From Octopus vulgaris (taxonomy: Eukaryota): 64,000 nucleotides of DNA. Position numbers and translations under genes: made by a program. Numbering within the stretch: position 1 is the stretch's first letter; each line of letters starts with the position of its first letter. The notes under the pieces were generated by a model that ran no database searches, was not told where the DNA came from, and worked only from the letters and a program-made list of their open reading frames with translations. Below are positions 27,071-49,616 of the stretch, piece after piece. The stretch is from contig OX597835.1 in assembly GCA_951406725.2 (NCBI GenBank), forward strand, positions 37,076,001-37,140,000, written 5' to 3'.

Positions 27071-28115
27071 AGAATGTTGATCATGGTTTGAAATTGAACA
27101 CGGAATAAAAGGATAACCAAAATAAATATTACCCAAAAGAAAGAGCAACATTGGTGTCAAACCTGCTGGGAATTGAACCTGGGTAAGATAACTAAACTAG
27201 ATTTTGCATAGATGCAACAGTAAAGGTGATGTTGGCACTGATGGGAACTGAAGCCTAGACAGTCATCATCATCATCATCGTTTAACGTCCGTTTTCCATG
27301 CTAGCATGGGTTAGACGGTTTGACCGGGGTCTGGGAAGCCAGGAGGCTGCACCAGGCTTCAGTCTGATCTGGCAGTGTTTCTACAGCTGGATGGCCTTCC
27401 TAACGCCAACCACTCCGTGAGTGTTGTGGGTGCTTTTTACGTGCCAGTCAAGGCGGCGCTGGCATCAGCCACATTTGGATAGTGCTTTTTACGTGCCACC
27501 GGCACAGGTATCACAACTACTATTTCCATTTGATATTTATTTCGATGTTCATGTACTTGACTCAATAAGTCTCCTCAAGCACAGCAGGTTGTTCTGAAAT
27601 CCAAGGTACTTTGAATAGGCTAGGGCTATGCGGAACTGGTGCAGGAAGCAGCCCGGGTCTTTGCAGTCACAGCATATCTCCAGAGATCTCGGTCCTTCAT
27701 CATTGCCTCTGTGAGGCCCACAAAAGAAAGAGAAATGCTGATGTTGACTTGGTTGGGAATTGAACACTGGACAGTGAGGTAACTGAGCTAAATATTACAT
27801 AGAAGAAAGAAAAATACTGATGTTGGCTTGTGTAGGAATTGAACCCTGGACATTTTGGTGACTAAACTAGATACTGCACAGAAGAAAGAAAAATGTTAAT
27901 GTTGGCTCTGGTGGGAGCTGAAGCTTCAACAGAAGTAACCAAGTTAGATATTACATGAAAGAAAAAAAACGTTGATGTGGGCTCTGATGGGAATTGAAAC
28001 CTGGGCAGCGTGATACCTAAATTTGATACTTCACAGAGAAAGAAAAATGTTGGTGTTGGATCTGGTGGGAGTTGAACCTAGGGCAACATGATAACCAAGC
28101 TACATGCCACATAGT
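27071..28115 (-). repeat. ~78-bp tandem array of truncated tRNA-like units (8 units), split by an RTE fragment
   Basis: Units tgatgttggc..ggtgggaattgaaccctgg..aactaga..aagaaagaaaa start near 27071, 27150, 27227, 27739, 27818, 27897, 27972 and 28050. Confidence 0.8.
27263..27722 (-). mobile_element. RTE LINE 3' end (ORF2 tail, 3' UTR, (GAT)n)
   Basis: Minus strand GLTEAMMKDRDLWRYAVTAKT, then UTR ending ggacgttaaacgatgatgat; further UTR copies at 20060-20290, 31035-31262, 33950-34518 and 43773-44040. Confidence 0.85.
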
Positions 28116-36789: not shown

Positions 36790-37610
36790 GATGGTAATGA
36801 TGGCAGGGGTGGAGGAAGTAATGGTGGAGGTAACAGTGATAGTGGAGGTAGTGATGATGGAGGCAGTGATGGTGGAGGCAGTGATGGTGGAGGCAGTGAT
36901 GATGGAGGCAGTGATGGTGGAGGCAGTGATGGTGGAGGAAGTGATGGTGGAGGCAGTGATGGTGGAGGCAGTGATGGTGGAGGCAGTGATGGTGGAGGCA
37001 GTGATGGTGGAGGCAGTGATGGTGGAGACAGTGATGGTGGAGGCAGCAGTGATGGTGGAGGCAGTGATGGTGGAGGTAGCAGTGATAGTGGAAGTAGTGA
37101 TGGTGGAGGTAGCAGTGATGGTGGAGGCAGCAGTGATGGTGGAGGCAGTGGTGGAGGTAGCAGTGATAGTGGAGGTAGTGATGGTGGAGGTAGCAGTGAT
37201 AGTGAAGGCAGTGGTGGTGGAGGCAGTGATGGTGGAGGCAGTGATGGTGGAGGTAGCAGTGATGGTGGAAGTAGCAGTGATGGTGGAGGTAGCAGTGATG
37301 GTGGAGGCTGCAGTGATGGTGGAGGCAGCAGTGATGGTAGAGGCAGCAGTGACGGTGGAGGCAGTGATGGTGGAGGTATCAGTGATGGTAGAGGTAGCAG
37401 TGACGGTGGAGGTCGTAGTGATGGTGGAGGCAGTGATGGTGGAGGCAGCAGTGATGGTGGAGGTAGCAATGATGGTGGAGGTGGCAGTGATGGTGGAGGC
37501 AGCAGTGATGGTGGAGGCAGTGATGGCAGAGGCAGCAGTGATGGTGGAGGTAGCAGTGATGGTGGAGGCAGTGATGGTGGAGGCAATGATGGCGGAGGCA
37601 GCAGTGATGA
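36790..37610. repeat. 15/18-bp minisatellite (GATGGTGGAGGCAGT with or without AGC)
   Basis: Direct reading; open in several frames on both strands. Confidence 0.95.
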
Positions 37611-46560: not shown

Positions 46561-46891
46561 TTGTGTGTCTGTGTTTGTTCCCCTAGCATTGCTTGACAAC
46601 CAATGCTGGTGTGTTTACGTCCCTGTCACTTAGCGGTTCGGCAAAAGAAACCGATAGAATAAGTACTGGGCTTACAAAGAATAAGTCCTGGTGTCGATTT
46701 GCTCGACTAAAGGCAGTGCTCCAGCATGGCCGCAGTCAAATGACTGAAACAAGTAAAAGAGTAAAGAGTATATCTGCACAGGAGAATTAAAAATTACTGC
46801 CGATTTTAGCAGTTTTGTAACTTCTTGCGGAACCCCTGCACTGTACTGGTGGAACCCTAAGGTTCCGTGGAACCCTGGTTGAAAACCACTG
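46270..46891. mobile_element. hAT (Charlie-like) MITE with perfect 8-bp TSD, carrying SINE A (46355-46769)
   Basis: TIRs CAGTGCTTTTCAAAC / GGTTGAAAACCACTG; TSD GCCTAGAT at 46262-46269 and 46892-46899. Confidence 0.92.
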
Positions 46892-47200
46892 GCCTAGATA
46901 CTTATAACTCTCTCCGCCTTTCAGTGATTTTAATATCTGGTCATCTGGTAATTGGATACCTTCGCTGTTGACTACCTGTTCCCTTCTCATGACTAATATT
47001 GCATACTTACCTCTGCCAACTTCCATACCTATATCTTTGCTGAAGAATTTTACAGTGAGTACTAAGGAATCTAACTCTTTTTCATTCTTCCTAAAATGCT
47101 TCAGATCATCCATGCAAAGCAAATCGTTAATTTTTCCCTTACTATTTCTGAACTGATACCCTGCCTTTGCCTTCCTTAATACTAAACTAAGAGGGATCAT

Positions 47201-47775
47201 TATTTACATTTGACGGATATTTGTCTTCATCTTGTTTGTTGTTAACATAACGTTTCGGCTGATATAGCCTCAATCCTTCATCAGGTGTCTTGGGGAAATT
47301 TTAAACCTTGATTCTCATTCCCAAGGTATTTTTTGATGTTATTATTATTGAGTGAGAGAGCAGTTCATGCCATCAAAGTGACACTGGGGTAAAATATACG
47401 AAGCCCAATATACCCATCATGACTACCCGTCTGATAAGGGTACACCAGGCACATGCATCACAACCATATGTGTGCGACATGGTGATCTCATATCAAGATA
47501 AACAGCACATGACCTTGCAGGTGGGGCCCAGTTAGAAATTTCTTTAGGTTGAGTAGCCCATCCCGCTCAAAAGGTCCCTGAATAATGTTGAAAGAACCAC
47601 CCATGTTTCCAGAGGTGAATTATTCAAACCCCAAAGAATCCCTCTCAACACATGGCTATGATGCTCCCCCACTACTTCTGCTCATGATCAGAGATGCACA
47701 TATGAGGGACATGCTCAACTGGTTAAGGTCAAACAACTAACAAGCAAATATTTGCTGTAGCCCATCTTTTATACC

Positions 47776-47817
<42 letters not shown>

Positions 47818-48062
47818 AACTCAGAATCTTGGGGTTAGTAGCCCCCGGCTCTTAACGACTACGCCATATACTTGTGGACAATTATGAGTGAATTTTAGGG
47901 CTTATAAATCTAATATTCTCCTATCCTCCCTTAATACCAGTTCCGATATGCTGTTCATATCTGCGCTTGGTCTGCTTAGGAGGTTGTTGTGTCCTAGCCT
48001 ATGTGCTGCTTCTTTTAGTTTTTGTATTTTCCAGTGGTGTTCTCTGTCTTAATTCTTCATCT
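47201..48062 (-). mobile_element. 5'-truncated Penelope-like element: GIY-YIG C-terminus, tRNA-like segment, (AAT)n and hammerhead
   Basis: DREHHWKIQKLKEAAH..RRILDL* (stop ~47902); tRNA-like segment at 47817-47870; hammerhead at 47244-47289; unclassified repeat inserted at 47350-47775. Confidence 0.75.
47244..47289 (-). ncRNA. Minimal hammerhead motif (family H6)
   Basis: gacac-CUGAUGA-aggauugaggcuauaucagcc-GAAAC-GUU-auguu; palindrome AACGUU; one mismatch each in helices I and II. Confidence 0.7.
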
Positions 48063-48829
48063 CTTAAATATAGAACTGAGAGGGATCAATCATAAGACAA
48101 ATATTAAAGGGGACAACAAGACCCCTTGAAAAATTCCTCTATTGATATTAATTCTCCCTAAGGCTGTATCACCTGAGTAGAGATCTACTTTCTATCTCTC
48201 CAAGCTAAAGCTAATTAATTCTCTTACCTTGTCTGTTAGACTGAATATACTCAAACATCCACTTATCCATGAGCATGAGATCATGTCATAGGGTTTCCTA
48301 TAATCTATCCATGCTATTGTTTGATTTTTCTTTCTAGCTTTTACTTCATTTAGAACTGCTTTGTCTATGTATAATGGATCATGCGTTCCTCTAGCCTTCT
48401 TCCTGCAACCTTTCTGTTCTTCTAGCAGTAAATTCTGGTTGTCAAGGTGCTCGTAAATGCTTTCTGAAAACATTGCTGTCAACAGCTTCCACACTAATGG
48501 TAGGCAAGTGATTGGTCTATAGCAGCTAGCTGCATTGCCCTTGCTCTTATCCTTCATAACGAGTATTATCCTCCCTCTATTCATCCAATTTGGTAATTAT
48601 TCCTCCATTAAGGCAATCTTGAAGTTGTTCCCTCAGCCTCCATTTCGTCTGCTGCTATGTTCTGAGTTCAAATTCCGTCGAGATTGACTTTACCTTTGAT
48701 CTTCTCAGGTCAATAAATTAAGTACCAGTTGAATACTGAGGTCAATGTAACCGACACAGCTCCTCCCCCAAAATAGCTACTCTTGTGGCAAAATTTGAAA
48801 CCATTATTATTATTACTATCTTTTTTTTC

Positions 48830-49558
48830 TTCTTTCAAATTTGCTTCCATTTCTTGCCGAGTGTCTTCCCGACTCCTAGGGCAAAGAAACTCATAGTATA
48901 TATTGGTAGGCCATTAAACTAAACTCACTAGTTCGTTCATTTTTTTTTAAGTTAAATTAAAATACATGGGTAGTAATAGTTCTCACATCGACAATGCTCT
49001 TCTCAATACGTATGATGTACCAGTTAAGACAATCTTTTGCACTTCTTGCAGGGATGGTAAGTAAGGGATCATTCTCATATAATTTTCGGTTCCCTTCTTG
49101 ATCATTCCTAGTGCTCCTACAATCATTGGTATTGTAACCGCCTTGAGATGCCACATTTTCTCAATTTCAATGAGCAGGTCTTTATATTTTCTGAGCTTGT
49201 CAAACTCTTTCGCCGAGATATTATGATCACAGGGGATGCTCATGTCGATCAATAAGCAAACTTTATTGTTTTGGTCTTTCACAACAATATCTGGTTTATT
49301 GGCTTTGATGGTTCGGTCTGTATGTACTGGAAAGTCCCACAGAATCGTTACATTTTCTCCTTCAGTTACAGCTTCAGGGTGGTGATTATACCACTTGTCG
49401 GCAGTTATGATATTGTAATGCCGATTTATTAGCCAGTGTAGATATTGGCCAACTCTGTCATGTCTTAATTTATACTCCACTGGTGCTAAGACTTTACATC
49501 CAGGGATTAGGTGGTCCACTGTTTCAATCATGTCGTTGCAGAATCGGCATTTTGGGTC
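48830..49558 (-). mobile_element. R4/Dong LINE 3' end: CCHC knuckle and restriction-like endonuclease domain
   Basis: CRFC..ETVDHLIPGC..RHDRV..KPDIVV..LIDMSIP..KYKDL..VGALG; open for 182+ codons; flanked by (TAA)-rich tracts. Confidence 0.92.
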
Positions 49559-49616
49559 TTTATTATTATTATTATTATATTATTATTATATTATAATATA
49601 TTATAATATATTATTA

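Follow-up and report, generated by a model that had tools for sequence, protein, structure and literature searches.

A tRNA-like head in the end repeat of an octopus Poseidon-type Penelope element, a candidate Pol III start for solo units and ORF-linked copies

SINEs classically have LINEs as their partners. The transcription of Penelope-like elements (PLEs) and their ability to drive SINEs are the two points on which the unit described here bears. Several known systems come close to it. Poseidon_Ac of the green anole, like the octopus element, has a hammerhead overlapping the start of a single RT-endonuclease ORF, two clusters of 3′ ends about 30 nt apart, and insertion from uncut RNA; the in vitro work cited for this anole relative gives two reverse-transcription start sites, with uncut RNA as substrate (PMC11167929). 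Penelope families of Adineta vaga, in the cited description, resemble it in their inverted pseudo-LTRs (pLTRs), a one-sided tail of 31 nt, target-site duplications (TSDs) of 8-10 bp, palindromes at the pLTR 5′ end and solo pLTRs (PMC3846280).

The SINE-like schistosome repeats Sm-alpha and Sj-alpha reach high copy number and have a tRNA-related Pol III promoter followed by a hammerhead, an order that has its counterpart in the octopus unit (PMC6765202, PMC2770079). Animal non-LTR retrozymes and non-autonomous PLE derivatives share with the octopus units a short, non-coding, pLTR-related sequence and type I hammerheads (bioRxiv 10.64898/2026.07.22.740005, PMC8557442). The studied Penelope promoter is internal, LINE-like and TATA-less in the account cited (PMC2377424). 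For octopus, the main text of a repeat annotation makes no mention of hammerheads (PMC13282606), and OR1 is given as a CORE-SINE (PMC4824008).

The window analysed here, a 64,000-nt stretch of the Octopus vulgaris genome, contains the decayed 3′ part of a Penelope element of Poseidon type (Table 1). The parts named in the original prediction lie on the minus strand as described, namely the ORF end, 28 nt, the head, a split (AAT)n and the hammerhead. The 29-nt inverted tail and the 10-bp TSD are two further features that the prediction had overlooked. The ORF tail reads DREHHWKIQKLKEAAH...RILDL* (48048-47902, minus strand). Its C-terminus carries what we take to be a GIY-YIG motif. The whole copy interrupts a decayed RT fragment of a different family, presumably a Dong/R4 element. 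Decayed non-LTR fragments at 48983-49579 and 46864-48640 (minus strand) include RT pieces and an end with zinc-knuckle and restriction-like endonuclease, ahead of which lies (AAT)n; Pfam returned no match for the endonuclease piece.

Table 1. Features of the element copy and its surroundings (positions are those of the window).
Feature	Position	Strand	Remarks
Target-site duplication, 5′ copy	48079..48088	minus	10 bp, or 15 bp (one mismatch) when bases shared with the inverted tail are included
Inverted PLE tail at the 5′ junction	48050..48078	plus	29 nt, 96.6% to family consensus, opposite strand; reverse complement of the segment between both 3′-end clusters
End of the RT-endonuclease ORF	47902..48049	minus	48 codons and stop, GIY-YIG C-terminus (translation)
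Spacer between stop and head	47874..47901	minus	28 nt
tRNA-derived head	47815..47873	minus	By tRNA-Arg alignment of the family head; A box 47866-47856, anticodon-arm remnant 47845-47831
(AAT)n linker, upstream part	47776..47814	minus	From sequence; whole (AAT)n span 47814-47339, interrupted by the insertion
Later insertion	47350..47775	minus	426 nt; 5′-shortened copy of a separate non-coding repeat of ~510 nt
Remaining (AAT)n and leader	47319..47349	minus	From sequence; 20-nt leader before the ATG
Start of the element's own ORF	47200..47318	minus	~120 nt; ATG 47318-47316; same reading frame as the RT in the consensus; stops at the first 3′-end cluster
Minimal type I hammerhead within the ORF start	47244..47289	minus	Palindromic stem III; predicted cut after 47249
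Target-site duplication, 3′ copy	47190..47199	minus	10 bp
Host: decayed non-LTR reverse-transcriptase fragment	48089..48640, resuming at 47189	minus	Pfam RVT_1 E 1.8e-6 (48195-48593)

This copy is damaged. Its promoter is probably dead, since the A box has a G-to-C change and a deletion of 17 nt has removed the 3′ half of the B box. The G/C arm pointed out in the prediction has its four base pairs here, but they result from a change particular to this copy and the family arm has three. The predicted hammerhead lies at 47289-47244, but its stems I and II are mutated and do not fold, whereas both fold in the family consensus. When folded as a single strand, the window copy did not outperform shuffled sequences (z 0.03, 0.53 and -0.98), which fits this damage.

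The repeat that splits the (AAT)n tract has fixed ends, resides in (AAT)n arrays and often lies within the AAT linker of this PLE. It gave 29 matches in 28 of 304 loci from the same genome, 19 of them with a common 3′ end followed by AAT, and fuller copies are found in L050, L084, L124 and L316. Our guess for its partner is an AAT-targeting LINE. Elsewhere in the window there are two tandem arrays, one at 27725-28095 (79-nt unit, 4.8 copies, with a B-box-like motif on the opposite strand) and one at 36808-37609, a G-rich minisatellite of 15/33 nt.

Is the arrangement a peculiarity of this copy or a property of the family? The genome searched comprises 2.8 Gb, and the exact-pattern counts that follow are floors, not strictly comparable among patterns. 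The 34-nt head pattern had 2031 exact matches genome-wide against none for its reversed control, which speaks against chance. There were 2970 post-hammerhead ends and 450 ORF ends, and 70 junctions from unit to ORF start when one mismatch was allowed. Genome copies found with a 121-nt query of ORF end plus head are about 90% identical, and the copy pile-up yielded a 2.7-kb unit at about 92% copy identity.

In this unit the order is head, (AAT)n, an ATG with the hammerhead in the first codons, RT and endonuclease, the stop, about 30 nt, and the next head. Among the first 30 of the 450 ORF-end copies, picked by the ORF pattern only, the head is present in 28, the hammerhead likewise in 28, and 27 have the two together (scoring thresholds 16-20 against shuffle maxima of 10-12). 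The head thus belongs to the pLTR of an autonomous PLE, as had been proposed. It is neither missing from other copies nor flanked by a duplication of its own, and an independent SINE insertion into the window copy is ruled out by the 27 copies that have both parts. Since the head sits upstream of the ATG, we prefer to see in it the beginning of the element's unit, at the 5′ side, over something added at the 3′ side.

The pLTR itself is recognised from a 3′ repeat that equals the stretch preceding the ORF and running into its start; at 70 places the 3′ end of the unit is joined to the 5′ part of the ORF. A near-full-length copy, L283, is flanked by the pLTR sequence. This copy (L283:1928-4653) starts about 5 nt past the predicted ribozyme cut and so has no ATG.

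The single RT-endonuclease ORF is about 840 aa long (Pfam RVT_1, E 5e-10). The consensus contains one frameshift at a homopolymer, and L416 is free of stops for 569 aa across that site, from RT to endonuclease, ending like the ORF tail in the window. Among 478 long homologues the best reached 53% identity (P0002, whose N-terminus is shared with the element's ORF) and the Anolis protein P0012 40%; tblastn with the latter gave coverage to residue 805. Pfam found no GIY-YIG match in the full-length homologues. We infer that P0012 is Poseidon_Ac. Judged by its best named homologue and its domain order, the element is of Penelope/Poseidon type, and it has further PLE traits in a one-sided tail of about 30 nt, 5′ inversions and short TSDs. 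This genome seems to have it as its principal element of Poseidon type, because all 30 best loci from the search with the Anolis protein (L414-L443) belong to this one family.

The family head was compared with 14 tRNA sequences from a 34-hit family search. Genomic tRNA-Arg aligned best (49/75 and 51/74 identities, z about 7), followed by Ala (z 6.1), Thr (3.9-5.8) and a gene called Ser(ACT) (4.7). The assignment to tRNA-Arg is provisional because several isotypes, including Arg-ACG and Gln, lie outside this sample. The tRNA-Ser origin of the original prediction is less likely, with no long variable arm and the lower score of the Ser(ACT)-called gene. In the consensus head the A and B boxes are intact at tRNA spacing and the cloverleaf is lost. 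ARAGORN made no call in the window, nor on the consensus when relaxed to 70%, and Rfam called neither tRNA nor hammerhead in the window at gathering score or in five good copies and a 281-nt stretch at E up to 10. The term tRNA-like, already used in the prediction, therefore rests on the box motifs and on how the head aligns with tRNAs of the genome. As a separate observation, seven tRNA-Cys-like genes lie clustered at L250:138-2854, and some variants among them are called Cys(ACA) and Ser(ACT).

The family spacer (47874-47895 in the window) resembles an imperfect inverted copy of the first 18 nt of the head, which suggests that the head was captured through a fold-back event. Together with the 5′ end of the head, the last 14 nt of the spacer make up an imperfect palindrome, of which they are the left arm.

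The consensus hammerhead has stem I, a core of CUGANGA and GAAA, stem II and a palindromic stem III, and its core bases are mostly 91-98% kept across 272 copies. On this pattern the pLTR carries a predicted minimal type I hammerhead. The minimal form is thought to act as a dimer, and the same architecture is described in the source cited (PMC4209133).

What do the ends of the copies tell about the RNAs from which they came? Our samples are the first copies on one contig obtained through exact patterns, two probable duplicate pairs included. The head-picked sample comprises 90 head matches, drawn from 100 that were listed out of 2031; all come from contig C1 and were chosen blind to their flanks. 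In this sample 72 copies stand alone, with a 5′ end at -8 to +15 of the head, and 18 extend further upstream, 12 of these reaching the ORF. The 5′ ends peak at -7 (13 copies) and +1 (10 copies), and only two of the 90 lie between -8 and -12. An inverted piece is found at the 5′ side of 54.

In the sample picked by the 3′ end (50 of 2970) the 5′ ends fall after the AAT (12), inside it (7), at +13 to +40 of the head (8), at -7 to +9 (19) and upstream (4), so that 19 of the 23 copies reaching head +9 stop at -7 to +9. The 5′-end rate is 0.052 per base at the head start and 0.004 inside the head, a difference of about 13-fold. Four chimeric copies jump from the ORF 5′ part straight to the head, L217, L218 and L243 to +1 and L244 to +7; the 5′ end of the head would accordingly also be a preferred landing site for template switches.

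At the other side the 3′ ends gather at two places separated by about 30 nt, +119/120 (25 of 50) and +142-151 (21 of 50) from the ATG, and these clusters match the PLE tail, a concept taken from PMC11167929. TSDs of at least 8 nt flank 24 of the 45 mappable solo copies (of 72), against a null mean of 0.5, and the TSDs rule out that solo units are leftovers of recombination.

The original prediction had the ribozyme process transcripts into SINE-like units. The copies do not support this. Cutting does not make the short units; they come from uncut RNA, since they span an intact cut site, and they end at the presumed reverse-transcription start sites of the PLE. In the sample of 50 selected by the 3′ end, only two copies start at the predicted cut, and the others span it. 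Among 69 of the 70 junction copies, all of which run on into the ORF, nine begin 1-8 nt past the cut and two at the head. Because these nine and L283 begin just past the cut, cutting may define some long RNAs. Head-to-tail double units such as L034 are occasional.

The stand-alone units do exist, as the prediction required, and form the majority, but they do not make up a separate SINE lineage. They could in principle be a self-propagating PLE-dependent SINE with master copies of its own, one of which became fused to the 3′ end of the PLE. Units standing alone outnumber ORF-linked ones (72 against 18 of 90) and have TSDs and SINE anatomy, and the spacer looks like the first bases of the head in inverted orientation. 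However, no allele outside the selecting pattern separates the 72 solo copies from 75 ORF-linked ones, and divergence after the AAT is equal (0.936 against 0.933). The body of the unit, including its 3′ part, is the PLE's own ORF start. Stopping at +120/+150, the solo copies also fall short of the first-172-nt ORF bases that the anole protein needed in the cited in vitro experiments (PMC11167929). We regard this origin as improbable, the least favoured of those considered here. The short units are solo pLTRs with SINE anatomy, and not a separate SINE, because their alleles and age are common to the ORF-linked copies.

The start of Pol III transcription usually lies 14-15 nt upstream of the A box. 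The sharp 5′ boundary of the copies lies 14-15 nt upstream of the intact A box, which suggests a Pol III start. Our main reading, to which we give a probability of roughly 0.6, is that the head is the element's Pol III transcription start and that one type of transcript gives rise to both solo units and ORF-linked copies.

A boundary of this kind need not be a Pol III start, because rotifer PLEs show pLTR palindromes and solo pLTRs in the cited account (PMC3846280). The head could have been captured once by fold-back and carried along since then, long Pol II RNAs being copied while the reverse transcriptase stalls or self-primes at the palindrome and so leaves short units. The pairing of the last 14 nt of the spacer with the head (about -9.5 kcal/mol) agrees with this, as do the base before each of the 13 ends at -7, which is the one that fold-back predicts, and the fold-back junction itself, with 543 matches genome-wide (a few palindromes counted twice) against 401 for the ORF-linked junction. 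Self-priming with 5′ palindromes is described for rotifer PLEs (PMC3846280). But about 80% of the cDNAs would need to stop within 22 nt, many ends at -6 to +1 have no full palindrome, and the boundary is sharp upstream (two of 90 ends at -8 to -12) and ragged downstream, as for run-off at an RNA end. Such a history would also leave the intact boxes and the lack of TTTT unexplained, and we consider it unlikely, if the most serious competitor to a Pol III start at the head.

The TTTT runs bear on the choice of polymerase because a Pol III RNA would stop at them. In the 2.7-kb consensus the sense strand lacks T runs of length four or above, while A runs number 31. Expected numbers of TTTT are 4.7 by base shuffle (P 0.007), 2.6 by dinucleotide shuffle (P 0.05) and 2.6 by synonymous shuffle of 814 codons (P 0.04). 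For comparison we used 79 metagenome PLE loci, 50 of them with stop-free ORFs of at least 350 aa. TTTT runs occur in 48 of these 50 ORFs (479 runs in 84 kb), and the two without them are both under 1.5 kb. The 14 metagenome ORFs of similar T content have 2.4 runs per kb, and single copies of the octopus family have 0.5 per kb. The signal is modest, one family being one observation; GGGG runs are likewise absent from the consensus, and three RT-like pieces of another family in the same genome are also T4-poor (3 runs in 3.0 kb). The boxes, too, may owe their preservation to an ancestral SINE, at a time when the head had yet to be captured.

RNA-seq reads (three unstranded runs of one study, about 6% of each covered) follow the genomic copy profile, with no sharp start or end. 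They mirror copy number and cannot reveal the transcript start.

Uncapped Pol III RNA is poorly translated, and a capped RNA would solve the question of translation if the head region were instead the start of an internal Pol II promoter as in Drosophila Penelope, the tRNA boxes being relics. Such a start would explain the same 5′ boundary, and the known PLE promoters are internal and within the pLTR in the sources cited (PMC2377424, PMC8557442). On this account, however, both the A-box spacing of 14-15 nt and the lack of TTTT would be coincidence, and we think it quite unlikely, more so than a head merely carried along.

With the head as a Pol III start, the following course of events can be proposed. 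The RNA would begin 6-7 nt ahead of the tRNA-like +1, and the element's protein would begin reverse transcription at about 120 or 150 nt downstream of the ATG, as the anole relative does in vitro. If priming takes place in the first repeat of the RNA, the short units of head, AAT and hammerhead would result, whose cDNA may often fold back at the 5′ palindrome and yield pairs joined head to head. If instead it takes place in the second repeat of a tandem transcript, the products would be ORF-linked and randomly truncated at the 5′ side, as is the copy in the window. A minority of the RNAs that read through the ORF probably owe their 5′ end to ribozyme cutting.

A bolder version holds that this is a coding retrotransposon with a captured tRNA-gene promoter, transcribed by Pol III from end to end, the same start shedding thousands of SINE-like hammerhead units. 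We put it forward tentatively and would rather bet against it. If true, the family would be a PLE-driven SINE at birth, still joined to its parent, and a possible model for an origin of the Sm-alpha type. A coding retroelement would then run from a tRNA promoter, for which no counterpart was found in the literature searched, and one would have to ask how its uncapped RNA is translated and what role a hammerhead inside the ORF has.

Our last comparison concerns the known systems. The literature search, which had subscription papers, Repbase and Dfam outside its scope, found no tRNA-headed Penelope. The octopus pLTR differs from that of Poseidon_Ac in opening with an A/B-box head and (AAT)n, the head being unmentioned for the anole in the cited parts of PMC11167929, and most octopus copies, unlike those of Poseidon_Ac, are solo units starting at the head. 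In 34 other PLE loci whose sequence extends past the endonuclease, neither the head nor the box pair was seen, a weak negative given that the box pattern recovers only 5-6 of 30 decayed copies of the element itself. The promoter motifs given for Adineta vaga are TATA/Inr-like, and the cited description contains no tRNA head (PMC3846280).

In Sm-alpha and Sj-alpha a canonical hammerhead frees monomers from tandem transcripts, and the cited accounts describe no coding partner sharing their sequence; the octopus unit, in contrast, is the end repeat of a coding element, with a minimal hammerhead that its copies span uncut (PMC6765202, PMC2770079). Release of tandem units by cutting, as in Sm-alpha or retrozymes, was not found among the 50 copies picked by the 3′ end, two of which begin at the cut. 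Retrozymes form tandem arrays, whereas the octopus units are dispersed monomers or head-to-head pairs, with no separate lineage; the main text of the retrozyme preprint mentions neither tRNA, Pol III nor promoter (bioRxiv 10.64898/2026.07.22.740005).

Of tRNA-derived SINEs the units have the A/B-box head and dispersed copies starting at the head with TSDs. A non-autonomous lineage of their own, apart from the partner PLE, was not found, with no diagnostic alleles and the same divergence. As a working analogy one may take R2, also a coding retroelement, with a 5′ ribozyme and an RNA that differs from an ordinary Pol II mRNA, although R2 uses the rRNA co-transcript and has an HDV-like ribozyme and no captured promoter in the source cited (PMC6765202). 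In octopus a tRNA-like head, a hammerhead and a PLE ORF are united in one unit, and thousands of copies record the start of the RNA and the start of reverse transcription. This may offer a concrete route from the end repeat of a PLE to tRNA-plus-hammerhead repeats such as Sm-alpha.
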